From Candidatus Saccharimonadales bacterium (lineage in GTDB: Bacteria; Patescibacteriota; Saccharimonadia; QS-5-54-17), in assembly GCA_040903985.1 (NCBI GenBank), contig JBBDUI010000002.1, positions 518,038-582,037 on the forward strand: DNA of 64,000 bases, given 5' to 3'. Both the position numbers and the translations under genes were made by a program. Positions 1,258 to 58,586 of this stretch are shown piece after piece. Under the pieces are notes generated by a model. The model was given only the letters and a program-made list of their open reading frames with translations, was not told the origin of the DNA and searched no databases. Within the stretch, counting starts at the first letter, position 1. Each line of letters starts with the position of its first letter.

Positions 1258-1332
1258 GGCAGTGTAGCTCAGCGGTAGAGCAGCAGACTCATAAGCTGTT
1301 GGTCGGTGGTTCAAATCCACCCACTGCCACCA
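1258..1332 (+). tRNA. tRNA-Met (anticodon CAT; initiator/elongator/Ile2 not distinguished)
   Basis: Cloverleaf with acceptor ggcagtg/cactgcc, anticodon loop ctCATaa, T-arm ggtggttcaaatccacc, and an encoded CCA. Confidence 0.85.
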
Positions 1333-1435
1333 CGTCAGACTAAACCTTCAGCTTCCGCAAAATAGCGGAAGGTGTTTTACTTTCAGCTTTCGGTTTGTCT
1401 TTCTTCTCCAAACGAAACAGTGCGTTTCGTTTGGG
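1333..1435 (+). repeat. tRNA-linked structured repeat, copy A (terminator-like hairpin plus second conserved hairpin)
   Basis: Begins cgtcagactaaacc directly after the CCA. Hairpin cagcttccgc/gcggaagg is followed by tgttttacttt. A second hairpin is ccaaacgaaac-agtgc-gtttcgtttgg. Homologous copies lie at 24102 and 29057. Confidence 0.7.
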
Positions 1436-1495: not shown

Positions 1496-2086
1496 TTAGC
1501 TAGGATGATAGAACTCAGGGTGGGAGCTTAAGTATTCTTGGAGGGCCTCATAGTAAGGCATAACGTCACCGGAGATGGCTACCTTAGGCGCATCATAAGC
1601 TCCAGCTGCCTCAAAGGTGATTTCATTCTCAATCCAGCAGCGCCCGCCATCGAGACTGGAGAGGAAGGCCGGGGTCATCTTATCTAGAGCGTAGACGAAT
1701 TTGCTCTCCCGGTCTTGGCGTTGTTCATAGGCCTCAATCGCCTCAATCATGCCGGGAAAGTCACTAAAATTCTCCTTAATCTTTATTAGCGACTGGTGCT
1801 CCCGCTCTTTTTTGTCCGCTTGTGCCGCTACATCAAAAGCAAAGGTATCACCGGCGTAAGTTTCGACTAAATCATGAATGAGGGCGTATTTGATGATCTT
1901 ATTAGTGTCGAGCTCAGTATCGATTTGCGGAGCGATAAACCAGGCGAGCAGAGCTAAGAAGTAGGAGTGGTCAACATCGTTCTCAGCTTCATCAGTGCCC
2001 GGGATGTAGAGCGTCCGTTTCACGCCGCGAAAGGTGAGGAGGAACTTTTGAAACTCTAAGATTCGAGTGATATCCGGTTTGCTCAT
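1496..2086 (-). CDS. HD-domain phosphohydrolase (YfbR-like 5'-deoxynucleotidase family)
   Basis: HD motif (DHSYFLALLA ... IHDLVETYAGD). The ORF could alternatively start at 2101, but that would leave only 3 bp before divergent tilS. Confidence 0.6.
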   Translation of the reverse strand: MSKPDITRILEFQKFLLTFRGVKRTLYIPGTDEAENDVDHSYFLALLAWFIAPQIDTELDTNKIIKYALIHDLVETYAGDTFAFDVAAQADKKEREHQSLIKIKENFSDFPGMIEAIEAYEQRQDRESKFVYALDKMTPAFLSSLDGGRCWIENEITFEAAGAYDAPKVAISGDVMPYYEALQEYLSSHPEFYHPS

Positions 2087-2104
2087 GATTGGTACAATCA
2101 TTGT

Positions 2105-3048: not shown

Positions 3049-4890
3049 ATGAAACCACAACGAGTAAATATGAAGAAACAGAATCGCAACTTCGGTTTTC
3101 TGGCCGTAGTTATAGTCTTCGTCATGATAGTCTGGGCGCTATCTAATACGACTGAGAACACCGAGCAGGTTTCACTGTCCGAAGTGGTGCGTCAGGTCGA
3201 GGAGGGTAATATCGAGGAGATTATCGTTGAAGGCAGCCAGATTACAGCTGTACCGAACGATGAGAATGCCCCTCGCTTAGTGACATTTCGGGAGGATCCG
3301 GGGGTTAGCATCACTGAGTACGGCATCAATCCGACCGAGGTAGATATAACTACTAGTGACCCAGATGCTGGTGCTGGACGTTTTCTCGATATCTTCCTCA
3401 TCTCGTTCTTGCCTATTATGATCCTGGTTGGCTTCTTCTACTTTATGATGCGGCAGGCTCAGGGCCAGAATAACCAAGCCATGGGCTTTGGCAAGAGTAA
3501 GGCTAAAGTATACGGAAACGACAAAGAGAAGGTGACGTTCGGTGAGGTGGCTGGAGCGGAGGAATCGAAAGAGGAACTGGAAGAAATCGTCGAGTTTCTC
3601 AAAACGCCAAAGAAGTTTGCCGATGTCGGTGCTCGCATCCCTAAAGGCGTGCTGCTAATCGGAGCTCCAGGAACCGGAAAGACGATGTTAGCTCGAGCCG
3701 TTGCCGGTGAGGCCGGGGTGCCGTTTTTCAGTATCTCTGGAAGTGAGTTCGTCGAGATGTTTGTCGGTGTCGGTGCTTCCCGGGTACGCGATCTATTTAT
3801 GAAGGCCAAGAAGAATGCGCCTTGCATCATCTTCGTCGACGAGATCGATGCAGTCGGTCGCCGGCGGGGCTCTGGTCTTGGCGGTGGGCACGATGAGCGA
3901 GAGCAGACACTGAACCAGATATTAGTCGAAATGGATGGCTTCGAGCAGGGAACTAACGTGATCGTGATTGCGGCTACTAACCGGCCCGACGTACTAGATC
4001 CAGCGCTGCTACGCCCCGGCCGTTTCGACCGTCAGGTACGTATGGACCTACCCGATCGCAAAGATCGTGCCGCTATCTTAGATGTGCACCTGGAGAAGAA
4101 GCCGAAGGGCGATGATCTGCAGATCGACTCCCTAGCTGGTAAGACGGCCGGTATGAGTGGTGCCGATCTAGCTAACGTCGTTAATGAAGCTGCTATCTTG
4201 GCTGCTCGTAACAACCGGAAGAAAATCATTAACCAAGACCTAGACGATGCATTTGAGAAGGTCGCTATCGGGCCGGAGCGCAAGAGCAAGGTCATGAGCG
4301 ATGAGGAGAAGAAGCTGACCGCCTACCACGAAGGTGGACACGCCATCGTGGGGCACTTATTGGCTAATGCCGATCCGATTCACAAAGTAACTATTGTCAG
4401 TCGCGGTGGCGCTGGTGGAGTGACCTGGAGTTTGCCGACTGAGGACCGTAACTACCGCACTATCGCCGAGTTTAGAGATTCTATGGCAATGGCGATGGGT
4501 GGTCGAGTGGCCGAAGAGCTAGTCTTTGGACCAGATAAGGTGACGACCGGCGCTAGCAGTGACCTGCAGAACGCCACCGGTACGGCTCGTAGTATGGTAG
4601 TGAAGTATGGCATGAGTGATAAGCTGGCCAACCAGTATTTCGACTCTTCCGATCATTCAATCATCCTCGATCGTGAACTATCTCAGACCAAGGAGTATTC
4701 CGACGCTACGGCCGAGTTAATCGATGCTGAGATCACCCGCCTCCTCCAGGATGCTACCGAGCGCGCCCGTAAGGTAATCGAAGGCAACCGCAAAGCGCTT
4801 GATGCACTGGCCGCAGCACTGCTCGAGCAGGAGACTCTGAACGAAGACGAGGTTCGTGAAATCCTCAAAGACGCTCTCGCCCCTAAATAG
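3049..4890 (+). CDS. ftsH: ATP-dependent zinc metalloprotease FtsH
   Basis: N-terminal TM helix, Walker [12 protein letters not shown] second region, and HEGGH zinc motif. Confidence 0.95.
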
Positions 4891-4956
4891 TCGAGCCTTA
4901 AATCTATTTGTCCAAATGGGTCCAAGCTGACATAATCTATTCTCAGAGGAATAGAC

Positions 4957-6537
4957 ATGGCAAACAGCGTACTCAAACGTGCTAATAAATCACTAACTAT
5001 CGGTGTAGCTGCCTCGCTTTTAGCGGGCAGCTACTTCTTAAGCGGACTCTTCGGCTTACTTAGGGATCGTCTGCTGGCAGCGCGTTTCGGTCTCGAGGGC
5101 GAGCTCGATGCTTATTTCGCCGCCTTCTCATTACCTGATTTAATGTTTTTCATTCTCGTCTCCGGTGCCTTAACTGTCACTTTACTCCCAGTGTTAAACG
5201 AGCGGTTCGCTGGCGGGAATAAGAAGTCGGCCTGGGAGATATCATCTAGCATCACTAACCTCCTGGGGCTATTAACCTTAGTTGCTAGCGTCATCATCTT
5301 TGCCTTTGCTAATCAGCTGATGGGGCTAGTAGCACCGGGCTTCGATGCCGCGCAGCAGGAGGTGGCGGCTAACATCATGCGTATTTTAGCTCTTAACCCC
5401 TTCTTCTTCTCCCTCTCCAGCGTTTTCGGTACCATTCAGCAGGCTTATGGCCGGTTCTTTTTCTTCTCTCTAGCGCCGGTAATTTATAACCTCGGTATCA
5501 TCTTCGGTATCCTTTATTTGACCGACAGTTACGGTATCTACGGTGTAGCCTTTGGTGTTGTCATCGGTGCTATCGCTCAGTTAGGGATTCAGATTCTTGG
5601 GGTGGCCGGGCTGGGGTTCACCTACAAACCACAGATTTTCTGGAAGAATAAAGGTTTTCGAAAGGTACTACGCCTCATCATTCCCCGCTCAATCGATGAA
5701 GGCTTTGAGTATTTGATCGCTGTGATCGAGCGGGCCATCGCTTCTGGACTGGCGGTCGGTGCCATTGCAGCTTACCAGATTGCCTTTAACTTGAAGAACT
5801 ATCCGATCACGCTAATCGGTACCGCTATCGCGACGGCGGCCTTCCCGAAGATTTCCGAGCGAGCCCTGAGTAATCGGACCGACCTGCTAAAGAAGGAGAT
5901 CTTAGGTGTATTGCGAGCGATTCTCTGGTTTGCAGTCCCGGCTGCAGTGGTTGTGGTCTTCATGCGTGGCTACATCGTGCGTCTGCTTATCGGCTTTGGG
6001 GATATGACGGTTGCCAACGTGCTAGGTTGGTTTGCTGTGGCCATCATCTTCCAGTCGCTACTGCGGCTGGTCAACCGAGTCTTTTACGCTCAACAGGATA
6101 CTAAAACTCCGCTTTACGTCAGTGTGGTGGCCATCATCTTGAACGTTAGCCTAGCTATCTATCTAGCCAACATCTACGGTGTTAGCGGATTAGCCATGGC
6201 CCAGTCGATTGTCGCCATTGTCGAGGTGATAATTCTGATGACAATCCTCTCCCGCCGCCTCGGCAGCTTCATTACCCGTAAATTTATGCGACAGTTGAGC
6301 GGTATCATAGCAGCTTCGACCGTAATGGGTAGTGCGACTTACGGACTGGTCCGTTACGTCTTTCCACTACTAGCGGGAGAGACCGGCTTCTTCTCGCTAG
6401 TGCCGAAGTTTGCGACCATTAGTATCCTCAGTTTTGTCGTCTACATTCTCTGCGGTATCCAGCTGAAGCTGCCAGAAGCGCAGGCAGTAGCCAAACGGGT
6501 GCGCAGCTTCGTCCACCGTCGCGTACCGCTCGGTTAG
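4957..6537 (+). CDS. murJ: lipid II flippase MurJ (MviN family)
   Basis: About 14 TM segments and the characteristic MurJ N-terminus (RDRLLAARFGLEGELDAYFAAF). Confidence 0.85.
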   Translation: MANSVLKRANKSLTIGVAASLLAGSYFLSGLFGLLRDRLLAARFGLEGELDAYFAAFSLPDLMFFILVSGALTVTLLPVLNERFAGGNKKSAWEISSSITNLLGLLTLVASVIIFAFANQLMGLVAPGFDAAQQEVAANIMRILALNPFFFSLSSVFGTIQQAYGRFFFFSLAPVIYNLGIIFGILYLTDSYGIYGVAFGVVIGAIAQLGIQILGVAGLGFTYKPQIFWKNKGFRKVLRLIIPRSIDEGFEYLIAVIERAIASGLAVGAIAAYQIAFNLKNYPITLIGTAIATAAFPKISERALSNRTDLLKKEILGVLRAILWFAVPAAVVVVFMRGYIVRLLIGFGDMTVANVLGWFAVAIIFQSLLRLVNRVFYAQQDTKTPLYVSVVAIILNVSLAIYLANIYGVSGLAMAQSIVAIVEVIILMTILSRRLGSFITRKFMRQLSGIIAASTVMGSATYGLVRYVFPLLAGETGFFSLVPKFATISILSFVVYILCGIQLKLPEAQAVAKRVRSFVHRRVPLG

Positions 6538-6632
6538 TCGGCTGAGACTCGCGCACCTTTCACACCTTACCTGATTGATATAAAGTGGGTGAACAGAGAT
6601 ACGAGCTAATATTTTTTAGAAAGGCAGCTTAG

Positions 6633-8423
6633 ATGGCGAGTGGCGCAGGACCTAACATCCGCAACTTCTGTATCATAGCGCACATCGATCACGGCAAATC
6701 TACCTTAGCTGATCGGATGCTGGAGATTACCGGGACGGTCGAGCAGCGCAATATGCGGGCACAGTTGCTGGATCAGATGGATCTGGAGCGAGAGAAAGGG
6801 ATTACGATTAAACTCCAGCCGGTGCGAATGGAGTGGAAGGATTGCGAACTTAACTTAATCGATACCCCTGGACACGTCGACTTTAGTTATGAGGTGTCGC
6901 GTAGCCTGGCCGCCGTGGAGGGAGCAATTCTAGTGGTAGATGCAGCTCAAGGTATCGAGGCTCAGACGCTGGCTAACGTCTACCTGGCCATCGAGGCAGG
7001 CCTAGAGATAGTGCCGGTACTAAATAAGATCGACCTACCGGCGGCCCAGCCAGATAAGGTAGCCCGTGAGGTCAGTAATCTACTCGGCTGCCAGCCGGAA
7101 GACGTGCTGCGGGTATCGGCTAAGACCGGTGAAGGGGTGGCAGAAGTCTTAGATAAGCTAGTCGCGAGCGTACCGCCCCCGCAGGGCGATAGCGATGGTG
7201 ATTTACGTGCCCTAATTTTCGATTCAATCTATGATGAGTATCGTGGTGTCATTCTCTATGTTCGGATAGTCGACGGTACGCTTAGTTCCGGTGCTTCGAT
7301 CGCTCTGCTTGGCAGCGGTAAGGCTAGTGAGGCGATCGAGGTCGGTGCTTTCATGCCGGCACCGGTAGCCCGTGACCAGCTGTCTAGTGGTGAGATCGGC
7401 TATGTCACTACTAGCTACAAGTCGGTTCGGGAAGCCCGAGTGGGAGATACGCTTACCTTAGCGAAAGGTTCTCGAGCCAAGGCCTTGCCCGGGTATAAGA
7501 CTATCAAGCCATTTGTCTTCGCTGGTGTATTCCCCAGCTCCGGTGATCAGCATGCTCAGCTAAAGGATGCCCTCGATCGGCTGCAGCTCAATGATGCCGC
7601 ACTGCAGTATGATCCGGAGAATTCGCAAGTGCTGGGCTTCGGCTTTCGCATCGGCTTCTTAGGTTTATTACATCTAGAGATAGTTAAAGAGCGCCTAGAA
7701 CGGGAGTATGATCTCGATCTCATCATCACTAATCCTTCGACCGACTATCAGGTGAAGCTAAACAATGGAGAGGAGTTGATGATCCGGACCGCTATCGCCC
7801 TGCCCGACCCTTCGCGGGTGGCCAGTATCGCCGAGCCTTGGATTGGGGGCGAGGTGGTGGTCAAGAAAGAGTACCTGGGTAATGTTATCGGTTTAATTAA
7901 TGATATTCGTGGTGAACAGAAGCATCTCAGTTACCCAGAGACCGACACGGCTCTAATCCGTTTCGAGGCACCATTAGCTAACGTTCTAACCGACTTTTAC
8001 GATCGACTGAAGAGCACGACTAGTGGTTACGGCTCTTTCAGCTATGAGCCGATTGGCTATCGAGTGGAGAACTTAGTCCGGATCGACCTCCTGATTGGTG
8101 GTGAGCTGGTCGACTCGCTGAGTCAGATCGTTCATCGCAGCGAATCATATCGGGTCGGTAAATTGATCGTCGATAAACTTAAAGACGTCATCCCGCGTCA
8201 GCTGTATGAGGTAAGTTTGCAGGCCGCTATCGGCGGCAAGATTATCGCCCGGGAGAACATTAAGCCGATGGGGAAGAATGTGACGGCCAAGCTCTACGGC
8301 GGTGATGTAACTCGTAAGCAGAAGCTACTTAAGAAGCAGAAGGCAGGCAAGAAGCGTATGAAGATGATGGGTCAGGTCGAGATTCCGGCCGAGGCCTTTA
8401 CTGTACTGTTGAGTAAGGAGTAG
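6633..8423 (+). CDS. lepA: elongation factor 4 (LepA)
   Basis: GTPase G1 motif AHIDHGKST and DTPGHVDF; LepA-specific C-terminal domain. Confidence 0.95.
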   Translation: MASGAGPNIRNFCIIAHIDHGKSTLADRMLEITGTVEQRNMRAQLLDQMDLEREKGITIKLQPVRMEWKDCELNLIDTPGHVDFSYEVSRSLAAVEGAILVVDAAQGIEAQTLANVYLAIEAGLEIVPVLNKIDLPAAQPDKVAREVSNLLGCQPEDVLRVSAKTGEGVAEVLDKLVASVPPPQGDSDGDLRALIFDSIYDEYRGVILYVRIVDGTLSSGASIALLGSGKASEAIEVGAFMPAPVARDQLSSGEIGYVTTSYKSVREARVGDTLTLAKGSRAKALPGYKTIKPFVFAGVFPSSGDQHAQLKDALDRLQLNDAALQYDPENSQVLGFGFRIGFLGLLHLEIVKERLEREYDLDLIITNPSTDYQVKLNNGEELMIRTAIALPDPSRVASIAEPWIGGEVVVKKEYLGNVIGLINDIRGEQKHLSYPETDTALIRFEAPLANVLTDFYDRLKSTTSGYGSFSYEPIGYRVENLVRIDLLIGGELVDSLSQIVHRSESYRVGKLIVDKLKDVIPRQLYEVSLQAAIGGKIIARENIKPMGKNVTAKLYGGDVTRKQKLLKKQKAGKKRMKMMGQVEIPAEAFTVLLSKE

Positions 8424-8425
8424 AC

Positions 8426-9025
8426 ATGGCCGAAGAGCTCGAGGCGATCGATCAATACAAGCGAGAGATAGTGATCGATTATTGCCAGCCGATGCAGTTC
8501 GATCCTGAGGCGATGCAGTTTATAGTCGGCAGCGGAACGCCAGTAAGTATACCTCTGGACGGTTTCACTCGTAGTCCTGATCTCGATTTAACCTTAGCTA
8601 GTGAAGTGAGGTCAGATCCCGAAAAGGCGGACGAGCACTTAGTCTTAGATACTTTCGGAAACGTAGTGGTGTTGCCACCACTGCATGCCTGGCTGAGAGA
8701 ATTGAGTGCAGATGAGTCAAGAAAGGGGGCAGTTGAAAGAGATACCGCCAGCTTGATAGGCGAAGTTTACACTTTCTTAGTGCCAGACGATTCGGTTATT
8801 CCCGTGATGGGTTATGATCATATGTCGTTCGGGGCAGCTATTAATCAGCGCGCCAGCTTCTGTTTGATTACTTTAGGTGACTGCACCTGTCTCGGACCAG
8901 AAGGTAGCTCGAGGCCGGATGATGGTTATTATCAGGAGTACAGCTTTCATAATATATTTAATCAGGCGCAAATGATCAGTCTCTATGCTGGAGCCGGTTA
9001 TCTAAGTTGGCTGTCTCGACAATAA
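8426..9025 (+). CDS. hypothetical protein, start 3 nt after the lepA stop
   Basis: 199-aa ORF immediately downstream of lepA with no recognisable motif. Its coding status rests on length and its tight position in the operon. Confidence 0.45.
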   Translation: MAEELEAIDQYKREIVIDYCQPMQFDPEAMQFIVGSGTPVSIPLDGFTRSPDLDLTLASEVRSDPEKADEHLVLDTFGNVVVLPPLHAWLRELSADESRKGAVERDTASLIGEVYTFLVPDDSVIPVMGYDHMSFGAAINQRASFCLITLGDCTCLGPEGSSRPDDGYYQEYSFHNIFNQAQMISLYAGAGYLSWLSRQ

Positions 9026-9126
9026 CCTTGGTATAGTGAAAGCATGTATCCTACTACCCGCACTGAATCGCCAGCCTTCTCGATTAAAATGACGACACAT
9101 CACTCTAAATTAGTGGCGTTAAAAAC

Positions 9127-23238: not shown

Positions 23239-23315
23239 GGGCCTGTAGCTCAGTCGGTTAGAGCAGCGGCCTTTTAAGCCGCGTGTCGTGGGTTCGAATC
23301 CCACCAGGCCCTCCA
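23239..23315 (+). tRNA. tRNA-Lys (anticodon TTT)
   Basis: Acceptor gggcctg/caggccc, anticodon loop ctTTTaa, T-arm gtgggttcgaatcccac, and an encoded CCA. A TTGCTA-17-TAGAAT promoter lies upstream. Confidence 0.85.
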
Positions 23316-23321
23316 TATAAA
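23295..23321 (+). repeat. 27-bp direct repeat, copy 1 (tRNA-Lys 3' end plus 6 downstream nt)
   Basis: cgaatcccaccaggccctccatataaa is repeated exactly at 23458-23484. Confidence 0.8.
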
Positions 23322-23355
23322 TACCTCGGCCATCGTGCCGGGGTATTTGTATGGA
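23312..23355 (+). terminator. long hairpin starting inside the tRNA-Lys 3' CCA end (tccatataaatacctcgg / ccggggtatttgtatgga)
   Basis: About 18-bp stem with loop ccatcgtg and no U-tract. A paralogous hairpin follows tRNA-Lys(CTT) at 31035. Confidence 0.4.
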
Positions 23356-23457
23356 ATGAGTTTGATGCCGGGATTCGAACCCGAAAGGGCATAAACTACC
23401 AGTGGTAGTTTATGGATACATTGCTTGGCCGAGCGAGAAACGTATTTCGAGCGAGCA

Positions 23458-23484
23458 TAATAACACACGAATCCCACCAGGCCC
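23458..23484 (+). repeat. 27-bp direct repeat, copy 2 (duplicated tRNA-Lys 3' end)
   Basis: Exact copy of 23295-23321. The intervening 136 bp contain an inverted tRNA-like T-arm (cgggattcgaacccg) and an 11-bp palindrome (cataaactacca g tggtagtttatg). Confidence 0.8.
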
Positions 23485-23506
23485 TCCATATAAACATGGG
23501 TCAGAA

Positions 23507-24026: not shown

Positions 24027-24101
24027 GCGGGTATAGTACAGTGGCTAGTATGCCAGCCTTCCAAGCTGGAGACGAGAGTTCGACTCTCTCTACCCGCACC
24101 A
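24027..24101 (+). tRNA. tRNA-Gly (anticodon TCC)
   Basis: Acceptor gcgggta/tacccgc, anticodon loop ctTCCaa, T-arm gagagttcgactctc, and an encoded CCA. Confidence 0.85.
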
Positions 24102-24205
24102 CGTCAGACTAAACCTTCAGCTTCCGTAAAACAGCGGAAGCTGTTTTACTTTCAGCTTACGGTTTGTCTTCCTTATCCAAACGAAACAGTAACGTTTCGT
24201 TTGGG
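24102..24205 (+). repeat. tRNA-linked structured repeat, copy B
   Basis: Begins cgtcagactaaacc. Hairpin cagcttccg/cggaagctg is followed by ttttacttt. A second hairpin is ccaaacgaaac-agtaac-gtttcgtttgg. Confidence 0.75.
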
Positions 24206-24253
24206 GGTGCGGCTTTATACTTTATACTGAATACGTAATACTAATTACCATGT

Positions 24254-24344: not shown

Positions 24345-25304
24345 TTATGTGGTTCTTAGCTCCCACTTCGGTGGGTAAAAATAGTCGATAGGTTCGGCAT
24401 TAGGCTTGTGGCGCGCTTTAATCCGAATTCTGTTACTGGATAATTTGGGGACTGCTTCGCGGCAGTATTTGTCTAGCTCACAAAATAGTCCCTGGCAGTC
24501 TATGGCATGGAGCTTCCGACCATGAAGGCCATCAAATTCAAGTCCGAGTCGACTAAACTCATCGTCCTGTCTCTCTACCATTTGCAGAATGATTTCTTCT
24601 GGCGAGAGGTCGCCACGAGACTTGAATGCTTTGTTAATTCCCCGTAGTGCGCCAGGCCCGGCTCGTGTAAATGAGTTTTCGCTGAAATTAATGTAAGGCG
24701 TATAGTTGAGATCTATTGTGAGCTGATAGGCCATGAAATCTCCGATTAAAGGGTAGCTGCGCAAGAGCTGGTAGACGTCCCCTAAGCTAATAGCAGCAAG
24801 AAGTTTCTTATCTAGATGATCGAGAATGAACATGTGCCTGAAGAGAGCGATATGATTCAGATACTTTTCGCTATGCCCGTAGGCCGTATTAGCGCAGAGG
24901 ATAAAAGCGCCAGTATAGAGTTTACCGTTTATCTCTTTAACGTGGGCTAGCGCTCGGGTGAGAATATCATCTTCTAGGTCGGTAATGAGCGGCTGACGAC
25001 CAAGGTAGTTTGTGATCTCATCCCAAGTCTCGGGTCGGCTAAAGAACCGAAAAGCTATCACTCGAAACAGTACATCTGATGGGTCCGCCTGCGGGTCTAT
25101 GTAGGCTATATTACGAATTAGATATTGCGACACGCGGTCGCTGGCTCGGAAGACGTTGCAGAACTTATAGGTAGCTAGGATAGGGTCATCGGTCCAGGGA
25201 CCGGGTTCTCCGCGGGCGCGCCGCTGGAAGATAGCTTGACGCTCGGCAGCATAGTACCAGTAGAGGTCGTAGATTTCGGTCCGAGGTATGGGTGTTTGAA
25301 TCAT
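24345..25304 (-). CDS. conserved hypothetical protein (319 aa), Trp/Tyr-rich N-terminus; family not confidently recognised
   Basis: Long ORF with good coding composition and no P-loop. N-terminal block IYDLYWYYAAERQAIFQRR..GEPGPWTDDPIL..YKFCNVFRASDRVSQ. See findings. Confidence 0.6.
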   Translation of the reverse strand: MIQTPIPRTEIYDLYWYYAAERQAIFQRRARGEPGPWTDDPILATYKFCNVFRASDRVSQYLIRNIAYIDPQADPSDVLFRVIAFRFFSRPETWDEITNYLGRQPLITDLEDDILTRALAHVKEINGKLYTGAFILCANTAYGHSEKYLNHIALFRHMFILDHLDKKLLAAISLGDVYQLLRSYPLIGDFMAYQLTIDLNYTPYINFSENSFTRAGPGALRGINKAFKSRGDLSPEEIILQMVERQDDEFSRLGLEFDGLHGRKLHAIDCQGLFCELDKYCREAVPKLSSNRIRIKARHKPNAEPIDYFYPPKWELRTT

Positions 25305-25391
25305 GCTTGATATTATAGCGGGTCGTTGTTGCGTACTATTACCGTCTAGTTTTAGTGCGGTTGAGCGCGTACTAGTGGTAATTGCACAAAA

Positions 25392-25433
25392 TCTTCAAAA
25401 AGTGTCCGATCGGACACTTTTTGAAGATAGTTG
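25392..25433. repeat. 36-bp perfect palindrome tcttcaaaaagtgtccgatcggacactttttgaaga (+tagttg), copy 1
   Basis: The sequence is its own reverse complement. The same 42 nt recur at 58525-58566. Confidence 0.85.
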
Positions 25434-25508
25434 GGTCGGTACGATATCTGAGACTGGCACTAGATATGATCGATGCAGACGTGTTAAGCCGGTCAGCCGC
25501 TTGTGAGG

Positions 25509-28908: not shown

Positions 28909-28979
28909 AGTCTTGATTGTACCAAGCTATCTGGCTTTATGCTCATTTGCTTTGCTGGTAGAGTAGGTAGTGCCTGTAT

Positions 28980-29056
28980 GCCCCCGTAGCTCAGCTGGAT
29001 AGAGCGTCAGTTTCCGGAACTGAAGGCCATAGGTTCGAATCCTGTCGGGGGCACCA
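28980..29056 (+). tRNA. tRNA-Arg (anticodon CCG)
   Basis: Acceptor gcccccg/cgggggc, anticodon loop ttCCGga, Arg-type D-arm, and an encoded CCA. Confidence 0.85.
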
Positions 29057-29160
29057 CGTCAGACTAAACCTACAGCTTCCTCTAAAACAGCGGAAGCTGT
29101 TTTACTTTCAGCTTCCGGTTTGTCTTCCTTTTCCAGCTAAAACAGTATCGTTTTAGCTGG
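29057..29160 (+). repeat. tRNA-linked structured repeat, copy C (second hairpin with fully compensatory stem changes)
   Basis: Begins cgtcagactaaacc. Hairpin cagcttcc/ggaagctg is followed by ttttacttt. The second hairpin ccagctaaaac-agtat-cgttttagctgg keeps the pairing with a different sequence. Confidence 0.75.
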
Positions 29161-29311
29161 TTAACAGCCTGCCCCGCTCTTTTCCTGAGCGGAGCAGGCT
29201 ATAACTAGGTTGCGTAGCGTCAAGAAAAGGTGCGTGGGTAACGTTTCGTTCGGGTGGATAGCCAGGTGCTCTTAATTATATAACCATCTCTTCTCATGTT
29301 ATTATGGCAAC

Positions 29312-29542
29312 ATGAAGACATTAAAGGAATCACTCTATATTGCTTTCGGAGCTTTACTTTTCATTCTAGGTATCGCGGGGGTGGTTGTTTTTCTTTTAGT
29401 TAATAATTTTGCAGGTGGGGTTAAGACGACAGGTATCGTAGGTAGCTTAATGGTAGCTATCTTCGGCTGGTGGCTGCTGCGCCGCGGATCTGATAGTACG
29501 GCAGATGCCATCGGCTGGATTATTGTACATTTTTGGTCGTAA
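29312..29542 (+). CDS. small membrane protein (2 TM)
   Basis: 76-aa hydrophobic ORF; coding status uncertain. Confidence 0.35.
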   Translation: MKTLKESLYIAFGALLFILGIAGVVVFLLVNNFAGGVKTTGIVGSLMVAIFGWWLLRRGSDSTADAIGWIIVHFWS

Positions 29543-29605
29543 TCCTAGCCTAGGTGCCTTATTCTACCCAAGGTGCAATGCCTCTTGTCCGTGTATACTT
29601 AGCCC

Positions 29606-30292
29606 ATGAGTATCAGCCTCAGTAAACTGCCACTTATGGCTTGGAGCGTGACTAGTGGAGCATGTCTATTGGCACTGATAGTGTGGTGGCAGGGGCTGAA
29701 CAATGGACTAGCAAGCATCAATTCATATACCCTTTTCCCTCTGCTCGGCATTCTCGCTTTTAGTATCATGTGGGCGCACTATATTATGAGCGCTGTACGC
29801 CAGATTATGCGAGCAGAGACGGAGGTACTTAAGACCTATTTCGAAATTACCAGCTGGCTAGCACTTATAGCTCTACTACTCCATCCGGGACTACTTGTGT
29901 GGCAGCTATGGCGGGATGGTTTCGGTTTACCCCCAGGTAGTGTGCTAGAGAGCTACGTTGCGCCGACTTTGCGGGGGGTGGTCATTCTCGGAACACTCAG
30001 CCTAGCGGCTTTCTTACTTTATGAGCTGCGACGTATATTTCAGACTATCGGCTGGTGGAGGTGGATACAGTATTTGTCTGATGGTGCGATGCTAGCGGTC
30101 TTATACCATGGCTGGCAGCTCGGTCGGCATCTTCAAAGTGGCTGGTATCGAATGGTATGGATAATGTATGCCATAACGCTTATCGCAGCACTGGGGTATC
30201 GATACAGGGGACTCGTAAAAGAGAAACGGGAGAGTACCCGGAATGACAAGACAGATGATTTGACACATAATAGGCAAAGGAGGCAAGGATGA
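29606..30292 (+). CDS. hypothetical polytopic membrane protein (Trp/His-rich)
   Basis: 228-aa ORF with about 6 hydrophobic segments. It overlaps the next gene by 4 nt (ATGA), suggesting an operon. Confidence 0.5.
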   Translation: MSISLSKLPLMAWSVTSGACLLALIVWWQGLNNGLASINSYTLFPLLGILAFSIMWAHYIMSAVRQIMRAETEVLKTYFEITSWLALIALLLHPGLLVWQLWRDGFGLPPGSVLESYVAPTLRGVVILGTLSLAAFLLYELRRIFQTIGWWRWIQYLSDGAMLAVLYHGWQLGRHLQSGWYRMVWIMYAITLIAALGYRYRGLVKEKRESTRNDKTDDLTHNRQRRQG

Positions 30293-30741
30293 GAGCTAAT
30301 CGTTCATTTATAGTTATCGGACTTATCATATTAATCGCAGTTATAGGGACAGGTTGGTATATCGTATCCCGGGAGTCAGTTGAGACTGAAACTCAAGAGA
30401 ACCGCAGTAGCGAAGAGACCACTCAGCCCACTGAAGGAGCGGCCGATGCAGCGGCGGAGCCAGAGGAGGGAGCTGTAGCGCCAATTGTCTATAGGAATGA
30501 GGGCTTCTCGCCCGCTCAGCTCAGTGCATCGACAGGAACAGAGCTTCTGATACGTAACGAGTCATCTATTAGCTTGCAGTTTAGCTCTGATCCGCATCCT
30601 GCTCATACTGATAATAGGGAGTTGAATGCTAGAGCTATTCAGCCAGGCGAATCAGTGACTATCACAGTTGAAGAAATCGGCCGGTGGGGTTTTCATAATC
30701 ATTTTAGGGAGACACATCGCGGCACGCTCACTGTAGAGTAG
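30289..30741 (+). CDS. membrane-anchored secreted protein, possible cupredoxin-like metal-binding domain
   Basis: N-terminal TM anchor and an acidic linker. C-terminal beta-rich domain with His cluster HPAHTDN...WGFHNHFRETH. Confidence 0.4.
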   Translation: MRANRSFIVIGLIILIAVIGTGWYIVSRESVETETQENRSSEETTQPTEGAADAAAEPEEGAVAPIVYRNEGFSPAQLSASTGTELLIRNESSISLQFSSDPHPAHTDNRELNARAIQPGESVTITVEEIGRWGFHNHFRETHRGTLTVE

Positions 30742-30806
30742 GGTAATGTCCCTATGTAGCGTGGGCTCGCTTCGGGCTAATCTGATATAATTGCCTCTGT
30801 ATTCGT

Positions 30807-30883
30807 GCACCCGTAGCTCAGTGGATTAGAGCACTGGTCTTCGGAACCAGGTGTCGTAGGTTCGAATCCTACCGGGTGCACCA
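30807..30883 (+). tRNA. tRNA-Arg (anticodon TCG)
   Basis: Acceptor gcacccg/cgggtgc, anticodon loop ctTCGga, encoded CCA, and a TATAAT box upstream. Confidence 0.85.
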
Positions 30884-30963
30884 TATAATTCGCTATTGCG
30901 GAGTGGTTAGCTTAACTGTTTTACAATTATATTCTACCTCTGTAAGATAGTAGCGGGTTACAC

Positions 30964-31040
30964 GGGCCATTAGCTCAGTTGGTTAGAGCATCTGCCTCTT
31001 AAGCAGAGTGTCCCGGGTTCGAGTCCCGGATGGCCCTCCA
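30964..31040 (+). tRNA. tRNA-Lys (anticodon CTT)
   Basis: Acceptor gggccat/atggccc, anticodon loop ctCTTaa, T-arm ccgggttcgagtcccgg, and an encoded CCA. Confidence 0.85.
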
Positions 31041-31082
31041 TACAAATACCCCGACACAAAAGCCGGGGTATTTGTATGGAGG
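31035..31082 (+). terminator. 19-bp perfect hairpin incorporating the tRNA-Lys(CTT) 3' CCA end (cctccatacaaataccccg / cggggtatttgtatggagg)
   Basis: Arms are nearly identical to the hairpin after tRNA-Lys(TTT) at 23312; the loop differs (acacaaaagc). Confidence 0.45.
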
Positions 31083-31109
31083 TGGAATCTCTAATGCTAT
31101 ACTAATCGC

Positions 31110-31382
31110 ATGAAAAGATTTAGCTTTAGTAATAAGATTTCGAGAATCGGACTAGCAATGTTCATTTTGGCTAACCCGCTGGTGTATTTGCTGGTTGGGA
31201 GTCTGGTTGTCGATATTCGAAATCTATTTGGAGCTGATATTGTTAGGCAGTCTGTCAGTTATAGTACGGAAGATCCTTTTATCATCGGAATGTATGTGGT
31301 CGCCGCAGCTGGATTCTTATTTATGATCATCGGTGCATTACGACAAGATCGCATGCCTAGAGTGCGCAGTTCAAGCAACTAG
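31110..31382 (+). CDS. small membrane protein (2 TM)
   Basis: 90-aa hydrophobic ORF; uncertain. Confidence 0.35.
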   Translation: MKRFSFSNKISRIGLAMFILANPLVYLLVGSLVVDIRNLFGADIVRQSVSYSTEDPFIIGMYVVAAAGFLFMIIGALRQDRMPRVRSSSN

Positions 31383-32140
31383 CGGGTTAACAATCCTAAG
31401 CCAGCTCCAAACGTAGTTCGAATGATACGAGCAGTGTCTGGAGCTATGAGCTTGATAGTCCTCTCCACATCGAGCGGTGGGAATATAGCTGTCGATTTAC
31501 GTACTAGCTTCTCATCATCGAGTGTTATCACGCCCTCTCTAACTGAGAGTAGACCACCCTCGCCGGCCGGTATAGTCCAATTTAGCGTCGTGTTTGCGTC
31601 AAAGCTTGTATCGTTGAAGCTACGGATATCGCAGTGAATAGGAAGAGGGGCGTCGCCACCGACCATATGTCGCGTACTAACCCCAGGTGCCTCTTTAGTA
31701 ATAGGCATATCTTTTTGCTCAAGCACTTCGAAGCTAGTATCTTCTGGAACTGGATCGGTGGTAGCGACGAGGATGAATAGTTCGCTATCGACATCACCGT
31801 TATTCCACTCTTTATGAATCATGCCGCGCTGACCTTCGGTAAAGCGAGCCATGGCGCCTTCGGGTATATGACCCTTAATGCCATTCAAGGCGTCATCGTG
31901 GTCGAAAGTGCCTTTCTCGGAATAAAATAACCGTTCGTTGTAACGGTGCGGGTGGTGGCCGATGCCCTGGCCGGCATAGATAACTGAGTCGTGAACAGTG
32001 ATGATGGGTCCGACGTATTGTATGTGGGTGAAGGGCCCGACTGATTCGATGGCTATCAGCCCCTCCATGCCAAACTCTTTCGCTGTTAGGGTGTAGTGAT
32101 CTTCGGGTGCGAGAATAATGCGATCTGGCAATTGCTTCAC
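31379..32140 (-). CDS. pirin family protein (bicupin)
   Basis: Pirin N-terminal metal motif GIGHHPHRYNERLFY and a two-cupin length. Confidence 0.8.
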   Translation of the reverse strand: MKQLPDRIILAPEDHYTLTAKEFGMEGLIAIESVGPFTHIQYVGPIITVHDSVIYAGQGIGHHPHRYNERLFYSEKGTFDHDDALNGIKGHIPEGAMARFTEGQRGMIHKEWNNGDVDSELFILVATTDPVPEDTSFEVLEQKDMPITKEAPGVSTRHMVGGDAPLPIHCDIRSFNDTSFDANTTLNWTIPAGEGGLLSVREGVITLDDEKLVRKSTAIFPPLDVERTIKLIAPDTARIIRTTFGAGLGLLTR

Positions 32141-32241
32141 GTCTGACTCCTTCTCTACTTAAGTGTAGCAACGATTCAAGTTGTTCGCAGTAACGCAGGT
32201 CAACATAAATTGACTAGTTTTTTTCGTGAGCAATCGGCATA

Positions 32242-33087
32242 GTGGTAGGTATGAGGCAACCATTTACCGCCACCGTAGGAGTTGAGAATCGGGGTCAATA
32301 CCTCGAAATTGCACATGCCGATGTCGACCGACGTTTAGGTGAGATTGCAGTCGGGATACTGATGAGCGAGAAGACAGGACTAGAGAACATATCTAATCGT
32401 CATGGCCTCACGTACCCATTATTTGATGAGGTCGATGAAATTGTAGCGGCTCAGCATGAATACGGAGTGCCAGCGGTGCCACTAATCATTCATTACAACA
32501 CTGACCGACCCGATCAAGCGGGACAACAGTTAGTGGCTGCACTGCACCGACATGAGACGATTGCGGCTGTGCAGGTCAACGGCTTGCAACCTGAGCATTA
32601 CGGAAATCTTGAATTCCTGAAGGCTGCTCGGCCGAAGTTAGATGTTATCGTGCAGATTGATAACTATATGTTACGCAAGTATCGACACCAACCCGACCGT
32701 TTCTATGCGGCCGGTCCTGAATTGCTGGTCGAGGAAGTAACAAAACATGGGGTGATCGATGGTGTATGGCTGGATGGGTCCGGCGGCTGCGGTAAAGAGC
32801 TAGACGTAGATGTCCTTATCCCCTATATCGATGCATTTGCTCGGAAAGGTATCAGTGTCGGTGTGGCGGGTGGTTTGCACGCAGGTAGCGTACATGATCT
32901 ATTACTACCACTACTTAGACGGTACGCAAGTCTAGATAATACACAACCAGCTTCTATCAGCTGGGATGCCCAAAGTGGTGTTATGGATGAGACTAGGAGC
33001 GGGCATCGGTTTAATACTCAAAAAGCTGTTGACTTCCTGTGCAGTTCAAATGCCCTGCGGCGAGAGGTGGATAGTCTGATACAGTAA
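32242..33087 (+). CDS. TrpF-like (phosphoribosylanthranilate isomerase family) TIM-barrel protein with ~80-aa N-terminal extension
   Basis: C-terminal blocks VWLDGSGGCGKELDVDVL and VGVAGGLHAGSV resemble the TrpF signatures (GGtGktfDW / GGLnpeNV). Start GTG 32242 or ATG 32251. Confidence 0.45.
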   Translation: MVGMRQPFTATVGVENRGQYLEIAHADVDRRLGEIAVGILMSEKTGLENISNRHGLTYPLFDEVDEIVAAQHEYGVPAVPLIIHYNTDRPDQAGQQLVAALHRHETIAAVQVNGLQPEHYGNLEFLKAARPKLDVIVQIDNYMLRKYRHQPDRFYAAGPELLVEEVTKHGVIDGVWLDGSGGCGKELDVDVLIPYIDAFARKGISVGVAGGLHAGSVHDLLLPLLRRYASLDNTQPASISWDAQSGVMDETRSGHRFNTQKAVDFLCSSNALRREVDSLIQ

Positions 33088-33091
33088 GAGC

Positions 33092-58310: not shown

Positions 58311-58524
58311 TCGTCAACGGCCATAAAGCGTTAGAGCGGCTCAGAAGTGGAGACTACCTACTCTATTTTTAAACAATGGGTGTCCCTGCAGGCAGTGGCA
58401 AGATGACTCAAATAGTGCTGGTGGAAAAAGGGATAGAGGTATACTCGCCAGGTAGACTTGCAAATCTGTGATGACGTTGTAAAACTCCTTACCCCTTCTT
58501 GAAGCCCAGAACATCACCAAATCG

Positions 58525-58566
58525 TCTTCAAAAAGTGTCCGATCGGACACTTTTTGAAGATAGTTG
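58525..58566. repeat. 36-bp perfect palindrome (+tagttg), copy 2
   Basis: Identical to 25392-25433. Confidence 0.85.
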
Positions 58567-58586
58567 AGTGTAGCCAGGATAAGCCT

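Follow-up and report, generated by a model that had tools for sequence, protein, structure and literature searches.

A structured non-coding element directly behind three transfer RNA genes of a Saccharimonadales bacterium, a candidate termination and trailer module

The stretch of DNA described here comes from Candidatus Saccharimonadales bacterium (assembly GCA_040903985.1, contig JBBDUI010000002.1, positions 518,038 to 582,037) and is referred to at its full length of 64,000 nucleotides (nt) as the window. ARAGORN recognizes nine transfer RNA (tRNA) genes in it, all on the plus strand, and three of them, those for tRNA-Met, tRNA-Gly and tRNA-Arg(CCG), are followed at the very next base by copies of one non-coding element (copies A, B and C, Table 1). 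A preliminary description of the window had placed three copies directly after the CCA and had pointed out a 14-mer common to their starts; both claims are borne out by the ARAGORN tRNA ends and by alignment. The 14-mer, CGTCAGACTAAACC, begins at the first base 3' of the CCA in all three cases (1333, 24102 and 29057) and has no further match in the window even at up to two mismatches (0.36 expected; three matches were found in 0 of 100 shuffles). The copies are alignable over about 104 nt with a mutual identity of about 90%: copies A and B are 92% identical, for B and C the figure is 94% across the first 79 nt, and the first 15 bases are the same in all three. Their likeness ends at the foot of the second hairpin (P3, see below), and the copied unit leaves out the promoter of tRNA-Arg(UCU) that follows copy B. 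The three host tRNAs all end in CACCA, and no reading frame is open in all copies.

The source genome was considered over the window and about 10 kb on either side of it (about 84 kb). The two extensions add one tRNA gene, an initiator tRNA-Met with a terminator of its own, and no copy of the element, so that three of the ten tRNAs carry the element, seven do not, and no copy lies remote from a tRNA. Other tRNAs of the source genome have unrelated terminators of their own right after the CCA, and a terminator is therefore what would be expected at the position that the element occupies. The terminator that tRNA-Lys(UUU) and tRNA-Lys(CUU) have in common, at window 23310-23355 and 31037-31082, even has an extended stem that includes the CCA of the tRNA (TCCATAYAAATACC...GGTATTTGTATGGA), so that in this genome terminators generally adjoin the end of the tRNA.

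Table 1. Positions of the element copies, their parts and host tRNAs in the window, and the corresponding sites in related genomes (L numbers)
Sequence	Feature	Position or length	Strand	Basis or remark
Window	tRNA-Met(CAU, elongator type)	1258-1332	+	ARAGORN; precedes copy A
Window	Copy A	1333-1435	+	tRNA-Met on one side, convergent HD-domain gene (1496-2101, minus strand) with its 3' end on the other
Window	Copy A, parts	P1 1337-1346 with 1392-1400; P2 1349-1374; U-tract 1375-1383; P3 1408-1434	+	
Window	tRNA-Gly(UCC), CCA encoded	24027-24101	+	ARAGORN; precedes copy B
Window	Copy B	24102-24205	+	CGTC box, P1, P2 with U-tract, linker, P3
Window	Copy B, P1 5' strand (AGACTAAACC)	24106-24115	+	Fold; single-stranded in RNA ending at the U-tract
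Window	Copy B, P2 (CAGCTTCCG / CGGAAGCTG), terminator-like hairpin	24118-24143	+	Fold; -17 kcal/mol when RNA is cut at the U-tract
Window	Copy B, U-tract (TTTTACTTT)	24144-24152	+	Terminator scan
Window	Copy B, P1 3' strand (GGTTTGTCT)	24161-24169	+	Fold; covariation
Window	Copy B, P3 (CCAAACGAAAC-AGTAAC-GTTTCGTTTGG)	24177-24204	+	Fold; covariation
Window	Spacer with promoter-like region of tRNA-Arg(UCU) (CTTTATACTT...ATACTAAT)	24206-24253	+	Kept in L189 and L194; outside copies A and C
Window	tRNA-Arg(CCG)	28980-29056	+	ARAGORN; precedes copy C
Window	Copy C	29057-29160	+	Directly 3' of tRNA-Arg(CCG)
Window	Copy C, parts	P1 29061-29070 with 29117-29125; P2 29073-29099; U-tract 29100-29108; P3 29133-29160	+	
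Window	Probable remnant of an older P3 3' arm (GTAACGTTTCGTTCGGG)	29238-29254	+	16 of 17 bases match copy B; 77 nt past copy C
Window	Gly-Arg spacer	152 nt		Copy B
L122	Gly-Arg spacer	35 nt		Without element
L125	Gly-Arg spacer	62 nt		Without element
L188	Gly-Arg spacer	430 nt		GIY-YIG open reading frame
L189	Gly-Arg spacer	191 nt		Diverged element
L194	Gly-Arg spacer	175 nt		Diverged element
L194	Element	161-277	minus	Covariance model, 45.3 bits, E 1e-8
L189	Element	489-604	minus	Covariance model, 34.5 bits, E 6e-6

The first 68 nt of the element form one long imperfect palindrome in which an outer stem, AGACUAAACC/GGUUUGUCU, surrounds a terminator hairpin. The element opens with a CGUC box, after which the outer stem P1 pairs element bases 5-14 (AGACUAAACC) with bases 60-68 (GGUUUGUCU); the hairpin P2 (CAGCUUCCG/CGGAAGCUG) and the U-tract UUUUACUUU sit inside P1; and a pyrimidine-rich linker separates P1 from P3, an 11-bp hairpin (CCAAACGAAAC-AGURNC-GUUUCGUUUGG) that makes up the last part of the element and that in copy C has the variant stem CCAGCTAAAAC/GTTTTAGCTGG. 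Folding of the copies, which the preliminary description had put forward as a check, gave structures far more stable than those of shuffled sequences (z scores of -5.3 to -6.7, with 0 of 200 shuffles as stable) and added the nested outer stem P1 to what had been described. When the RNA of the window copies is cut at the U-tract, P2 folds at -14.8 to -17 kcal/mol and leaves a free 5' leader of 15-16 nt. This is the form of an intrinsic terminator, a stable GC-containing stem-loop followed by a U-rich tract on the transcribed strand, and the earlier assignment of a rho-independent terminator by form thus stands, as does the wider view of the element as a tRNA-3'-linked, non-coding, structured module, with which the positions, the folds and the absence of a shared open frame agree. 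A simple terminator scan flagged copy B only among the three. The cagcttccg/cggaagctg stem that had been ascribed to each copy is perfect in copy B and is interrupted by a G-G mismatch in copy A and a U-C mismatch in copy C; the P2 substitutions among the three copies are uncompensated mismatches.

We considered and rejected a switch of the attenuator or riboswitch type. Mutually exclusive folds had been suggested on account of a third cagcttccgg segment further downstream, and such a segment is indeed present, in the form cagcttNcgg, with N varying between T, A and C without compensation. The segment (CAGCUUNCGG) lies 3' of the U-tract and would therefore be synthesized after the termination decision, and L189 and L194, the two related genomes that carry the element (see below), have no equivalent of it. 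The idea of attenuator-like alternative folds was consequently dropped.

Orthologous loci of related genomes were fetched via the neighbouring genes for MurA, a PBP-family protein and the HD-domain protein. By identity of the PBP protein the window, L194, L188 and L189 form one clade (74-82%), and L122 and L125 fall outside it (62-70%); the PBP proteins of L194 and L189 are 74-76% identical to that of the window. The pair of genes for tRNA-Gly and tRNA-Arg(UCU) is conserved in L122, L125, L188, L189, L194 and the window, and the content of the spacer between them varies (Table 1). A covariance model, R1, was built solely from copies A, B and C and scanned over 186 kb of Saccharimonadales DNA, a type of scan that had been advised in the preliminary description; in these 186 kb it matched nothing beyond the window copies except one site in L194 and one in L189, both in the Gly-Arg spacer. 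In L194 the tRNA end and the element read cca followed by CGTCGGAATACATTCAGCTT..., then a terminator unlike that of the window copies (GCTCTTAG...CTAAGAGC with TTTTTT) and then TCCTCCTTTTCTGATTGAAACAGTATCGTTTCAATCAGG, after which comes a tRNA-Arg promoter-like block as in the window (CTTTATA...ATACTAAT). In L189 three extra bases stand between the CCA and the element; the alignment of copy B with L189 scores 56, the maximum for shuffles being 39. Copy B aligns with its orthologues in L189 and L194 in blocks only, with about 60-70% identity there; the CGUC box and UUCAGCUU are retained in both, and P2 is unalignable.

The sister genome L188 and the outgroups L122 and L125 are without the element at the tRNA-Gly site. 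The L188 spacer was tried as a homologue of the element and rejected, as its CGACAGTTAAAC-TGTCTTAC match is not significant and the covariance model finds no match in it. The simplest history would be a gain at tRNA-Gly in the ancestor of the clade followed by loss or replacement in L188. At the site corresponding to copy A, the tRNA-Met of L191 lies 21 nt from the stop codon of the HD-domain gene with no element between them, and L190 has no tRNA beside the HD-domain gene.

The sequences available for covariation are five (copies A, B and C, L189 and L194) from three genomes. L194 and L189, folded independently, come out with the architecture of the window copies, in which a box of 4 nt is followed by P1 around a hairpin and U-tract and then by a linker and P3, and their P2 hairpins have energies of -19 to -21 kcal/mol with a U-tract of UUUUU(U). 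In P3, 54 of 55 cells are paired and 6 of 11 pairs are changed on both sides, values that 0 of 500 shuffles reach; the middle of the stem occurs as three different sequences and one half-changed intermediate, that of L189, and its top, AAAC-AGUNNC-GUUU, is invariant in the five sequences. Across the same sequences 4 of 8 pairs of P1 are changed on both sides, one of these double changes being an A-U to G-C exchange between L189 and L194. For the whole element a model-guided alignment gives 93% of cells paired and 10 pairs changed on both sides; this alignment leans to the model, and the independent folds agree with it. The pairing signal is lost when the partners are slid by 1-3 columns.

At about 75% protein identity neutral intergenic DNA is expected to be unalignable, as the other spacers are, and the retention of box, P1, linker and P3 at that divergence therefore argues for selection. 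The P2 sequence cannot be aligned between the window type and the L189/L194 type, yet a hairpin and a U-tract are found in both, and their retention despite the replacement of P2 points to selection for termination. The tRNA-Gly copy so appears to be ancestral and structurally constrained. The preliminary description had already called attention to compensatory changes in the second hairpin of copy C and had taken them as a sign of selection on RNA structure as opposed to a selfish repeat. The four pairs are real, but they are adjacent and may stem from one event; selection on structure is now supported by the covariation of P1 and P3 with L189 and L194. The contrast with a selfish repeat does not follow from compensation, since REPINs and the ends of IS200/IS605 elements, which are hairpin-dependent mobile DNA, keep their pairing as well.

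A near-identical triplicate within one genome means that the element is copied. Identity among A, B and C is about 90%, while copy B matches its orthologues in blocks only, which implies either that A and C were recently derived from B or from a common master or that the three have been homogenized by conversion. The copies behind tRNA-Met and tRNA-Arg(CCG) thus appear to be recent within the source genome. Empty counterparts support recent copying: the element-free interval between tRNA-Met and the HD-domain gene in L191, and the short empty Gly-Arg spacers of L122 and L125. Downstream of copy C lies the probable remnant of an older P3 3' arm (Table 1), which has the same T-to-C change as L189; with lenient gap costs 7 of 300 shuffles reach its score, and for an ungapped 17-mer with one mismatch the expectation is estimated at about 2e-4. 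This may be an older copy that was pushed downstream. Between copy C and the remnant, at window 29166-29200, there is a GC-rich hairpin of 14 bp (AGCCTGCCCCGCTC / GAGCGGAGCAGGCT) that lacks a U-tract on both strands.

No described family accounts for the element, as had been supposed at the outset. In Rfam 15 only the tRNAs reach the gathering threshold and no family fits the element; at permissive thresholds the best sub-threshold hits on the element have E values of at least 3.8 in the window and of 0.26 in L194. Scanning 596 Gb of genome contigs for the bare 14-mer gave chance matches only, 14 bases being too few, and none was real with a longer pattern. Scans of JGI metagenomes with 23-25 specified bases gave 0 matches, scans of viral collections gave 0 or seed-only chance matches, and blastn found nothing among phages and only a 25-nt chance match among plasmids. 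Our literature searches found no such element described in Saccharibacteria.

We propose, as a reading to which we give about an even chance, that the element is a structure-constrained non-coding trailer module for stand-alone tRNA genes, serving termination and 3'-end processing, and that it can be duplicated onto other tRNA ends. Termination would explain its position and strand, the U-tract, the replacement of P2 and the presence of private terminators at the same place behind other tRNAs. From the form of the element we infer the following course of events. Each tRNA would be transcribed from its own promoter, with an unpaired leader of 15-16 nt (CGUCAGACUAAACCUU) directly after the CCA, and P2 with its U-tract would end most transcripts about 50 nt past the tRNA. 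The unpaired leader could then provide an entry for nucleases, which would trim the 3' end back to the CCA. On read-through, the P1 3' strand would close a long P1/P2 helix and P3 would form, and the two would probably act as a second barrier or as a double-strand cleavage site for an RNase, shielding the downstream tRNA-Arg promoter or the convergent gene. The ancestor of a small Saccharimonadales clade would already have had the module behind tRNA-Gly(UCC), and in the source genome it would have been copied behind tRNA-Met and tRNA-Arg(CCG), from the base after the CCA to the end of P3. How it was copied we can only guess: template switching or recombination at the shared CACCA, or non-autonomous transposition.

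Several points weigh against this proposal. Termination and processing are suggested by form, that is, by predicted structure. Both P3 and the P1 3' strand come after the U-tract and would rarely be transcribed if the terminator is efficient, so that their strong conservation exceeds what termination alone would call for; a function at the level of DNA might account for it. Of the five sequences, four have no U-tract behind P3. For P1 the counts were taken from a model-fitted alignment of five sequences from three genomes, two of which were covered by short orthologous contigs. The linkage to tRNAs was observed in about 84 kb, the genome measuring at least 739 kb, and copies away from tRNAs may exist elsewhere. 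An exact start of copying at the CCA is putative, and the possible older remnant behind copy C seems to suit repeated insertion better than it does a static module.

The main alternative, possible although on balance unlikely, is that the element is a non-autonomous, hairpin-dependent mobile element of single-stranded DNA, of the IS200/IS605-derived PATE or REPIN type, that inserts 3' of CACCA in one orientation and without target duplication. Recognition by a transposase would keep the hairpins paired, and the terminator would be a side effect; a terminator hairpin is carried by IS200 at its left end. Three copies of about 90% identity right after CACCA, in a single orientation and without target duplication, with a hairpin near each end, would look much like the products of such an element, and tRNAs that end in CUCCA or CCCCA (Lys, His) are without it. 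The uncompensated P2 substitutions among A, B and C also fit, as does the probable P3 remnant 77 nt past copy C, of the kind left by repeated insertion at one target, and the spacers near these tRNAs seem to be insertion hot spots, with a GIY-YIG open reading frame (ORF) in L188 and an att-like scar after tRNA-Lys. Support for a preference for CACCA is weak, however: the window holds 151 such sites, 15 of them outside ORFs and 6 of those at tRNA ends, so that for an element tolerated at non-coding sites only, p is about 0.04 for three hits at tRNA ends, and in L189 three bases separate the CCA from the element. Pfam annotation of the 84 kb shows no transposase, integrase or HUH protein, and no autonomous partner with a transposase, a Y1 (HUH) transposase or a RAYT was found there; no similar sequence occurs in the phage, plasmid, viral and JGI metagenome collections; and the spacing between hairpin and end is unlike that of IS608. 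The tRNA-Gly copy occupies the same site in three genomes at saturated divergence, its flanking blocks having diverged about as much as the neighbouring promoter, which argues for vertical descent under constraint and not for a decaying dead copy. The trailer module and the mobile element can both be partly true, if a mobile cassette is kept because it terminates. A bolder form of this combination is a cassette that homes to tRNA ends and is kept by the host for termination and processing, in other words a domesticated mobile tRNA terminator of Candidate Phyla Radiation (CPR) bacteria and a new RNA/DNA structure family; it would be copied onto the CCA at the tRNA 3' end via the tRNA or its precursor (CCA-3'OH priming, template switching) or by a hairpin-recognizing enzyme, and we regard it as a speculative and rather unlikely extension. 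Among more specific forms of mobile or repeated DNA, a miniature inverted-repeat transposable element (MITE) was rejected by its ends, as CGTC... and ...TTTGG are not inverted repeats, the P1 strands are internal and there is no flanking duplication at any copy; P3 as a dif/lox-like recombinase core (11 + 6 + 11) was rejected because the copy C locus lacks the hybrid arms expected from integration; and group II intron domain V, attC sites and uptake sequences were set aside since their defining motifs or copy numbers are missing.

The trailer might also be a small RNA (sRNA) released from the tRNA precursor, either a terminated RNA of about 50 nt or a two-domain RNA of about 105 nt, that acts via its invariant single-stranded 5' segment. 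The start of the element coincides with the tRNA processing site, the terminated form, with 16 unpaired nt at the 5' end before a stable 3' hairpin, has the usual build of an sRNA, three genes for one RNA would raise its dose, and the 3'ETS RNA of E. coli is a precedent. The first 15 bases are the same in A, B and C, and the CGUC box and UUCAGCUU are retained in the orthologues, but for three copies of 90% identity invariance of 15-20 bases at the 5' end is not significant, since by our estimate it would arise by chance in about 9% of cases (20 columns, including the CACCA of the tRNA). The 5' segment reads AGACUAAACC in the window type and RGAAUACAU in L189 and L194, and its change together with that of its P1 partner points to pairing inside the element rather than with a target. 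An sRNA would moreover leave the conservation of the P1 3' strand and of P3 past the terminator unexplained, and its expression and pairing partner would be hypothetical, so we consider it improbable. Least of all do we expect that the copies are attachment (att) scars or island ends of related integrative elements that entered three tRNA genes by means of a tyrosine integrase, an explanation that strikes us as very improbable. The 3' ends of tRNA genes are classical integration sites, the window does contain a 27-nt att-like duplication of the 3' end of tRNA-Lys, and gene content beside these tRNAs differs between relatives; however, none of the three copies has a duplicated tRNA 3' end beside it, no integrase lies nearby, identity begins after the tRNA and not within it, and what was added is just 104 nt before the conserved tRNA-Arg promoter or the conserved HD-domain gene, with no island.

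The surroundings of the tRNAs in this clade seem to be insertion hot spots, and several features found there are of interest in their own right. The tRNA-Lys duplication is an identical 27-nt direct repeat (window 23295-23321 and 23468-23494, 146 nt apart) that consists of the last 21 nt of tRNA-Lys(UUU) and TATAAA, and it has the appearance of an att scar left by an integrated element that was small or has decayed. A T-arm-like sequence on the reverse strand (GATGCCGGGATTCGAACCCG) lies between the two repeat copies, at about 23364-23385, and similar motifs follow tRNAs in L125, L188 and L189; a search of Rfam with this region found nothing. Right after tRNA-Arg(UCU) a protein of 319 amino acids (window 24345-25304, minus strand), absent from that place in L122, matches PF18723 (E 1.9e-97), the helical domain of the 5-hmdU DNA kinase, an enzyme of phage-type thymidine hypermodification. 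The GIY-YIG ORF in the Gly-Arg spacer of L188 (1331-1603, minus strand) encodes 90 amino acids and has 14-nt inverted repeats upstream (ttcgatgcgacagt / actgtcgcatcgaa), and a GIY-YIG-like fragment lies upstream of tRNA-Met in L191 (about 4370-4440). A perfect 36-nt palindrome, TCTTCAAAAAGTGTCCGATCGGACACTTTTTGAAGA, occurs in two copies with shared flanks 33 kb apart (window 25391-25436 and 58516-58569); it has the form of a bidirectional terminator and would constitute another small repeat family of the source genome.

To the left of the window, positions 3482-9105 of the flanking sequence L129 (reaching to about window position 1209) hold an M78 peptidase of the ImmA/IrrE type and its HTH_3 partner, together with a DUF2188 protein and several ORFs that are unknown; next come the minus-strand initiator tRNA-Met (6877-6951) and a membrane protein with DUF2207. 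ORF lengths here differ in the strain variant L130, and the region may be a mobile island beside the tRNA-Met that carries copy A. The interval from MurA to the FolD-like (THF_DHG_CYH) gene (window 28909-33091) measures about 4.2 kb, compared with 340 nt with two tRNAs in L122 (9660-10001), and comprises tRNA-Arg(CCG) with copy C, an ORF of 228 amino acids, a cupredoxin-like ORF, two tRNAs, a pirin gene and an ORF of 281 amino acids. The tRNA-Arg(CCG) of the window is 76% identical to that of L125. The 228-amino-acid ORF after copy C was compared with the 204-amino-acid ORF adjacent to MurA in relatives as its possible relocated homologue, and homology was rejected.

Terminators after tRNAs are already well known, as are palindromic intergenic repeats. 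Like the intrinsic terminators behind bacterial tRNAs, the element places a GC-containing hairpin with its U-tract on the tRNA strand, no more than about 50 nt from the CCA. An ordinary tRNA terminator is gene-specific and about 30-40 nt long, whereas the element nests its hairpin in a covarying outer stem, adds a second conserved hairpin, and is over its whole 104 nt common to three unrelated tRNAs and kept across genomes. In E. coli the glyW-cysT-leuZ operon gives rise to a 3' external transcribed spacer RNA, 3'ETS-leuZ, which resembles the element in being an RNA segment that runs from a tRNA 3' end to the operon terminator and could be released by tRNA processing; it is a single-locus trailer and not a repeat behind several tRNAs, with no conserved structure past the terminator, and for the element accumulation and a pairing partner would be hypothetical. 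In Methanopyrus kandleri about half of the tRNA genes are followed, at a distance of about 10 bp, by a palindrome that was proposed to be a 3' maturation signal (PMC5217627), and it too is a genome-specific palindrome 3' of many different tRNA genes; this archaeal motif is, however, 18-20 nt long (CGTTA-N9-TAACG), has no terminator or second hairpin and shows no sequence likeness to the element. REP/BIME-REPIN, ERIC, Correia and RUP-type repeats and the IS200/IS605-derived PATEs are likewise short, non-coding, palindromic and repeated within a genome; they occur at gene 3' ends, may act as terminators and show compensatory upkeep of hairpins, and the lack of a target duplication recalls IS200/IS605. 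The element differs from REP- and PATE-type repeats in that no cognate transposase was seen, its three copies in 84 kb all lie at a tRNA CCA in one orientation, there is neither a GTAG-type REP head nor terminal inverted repeats at the true ends, and one copy is orthologous across genomes and constrained.

To our knowledge, small CPR genomes have almost no described non-coding elements. What is unusual about the present one is the combination of a covarying nested P1/P2 structure and P3, strict CCA linkage to unrelated tRNAs, orthologous retention together with recent spread, and the lack of a match in Rfam and the sequence collections that were searched. It is a candidate new structured family with covariation from five sequences, and the covariance model R1, extended with L189 and L194, can be used on Saccharimonadales genomes. 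An ancestral copy under structural constraint and two recent duplicates on unrelated tRNAs are found here together, features that are usually seen apart. If it is true that copying targets the CCA end, this would amount to tRNA-directed insertion, in a bacterium, of a cassette that is useful and would show how terminators spread in compact genomes.

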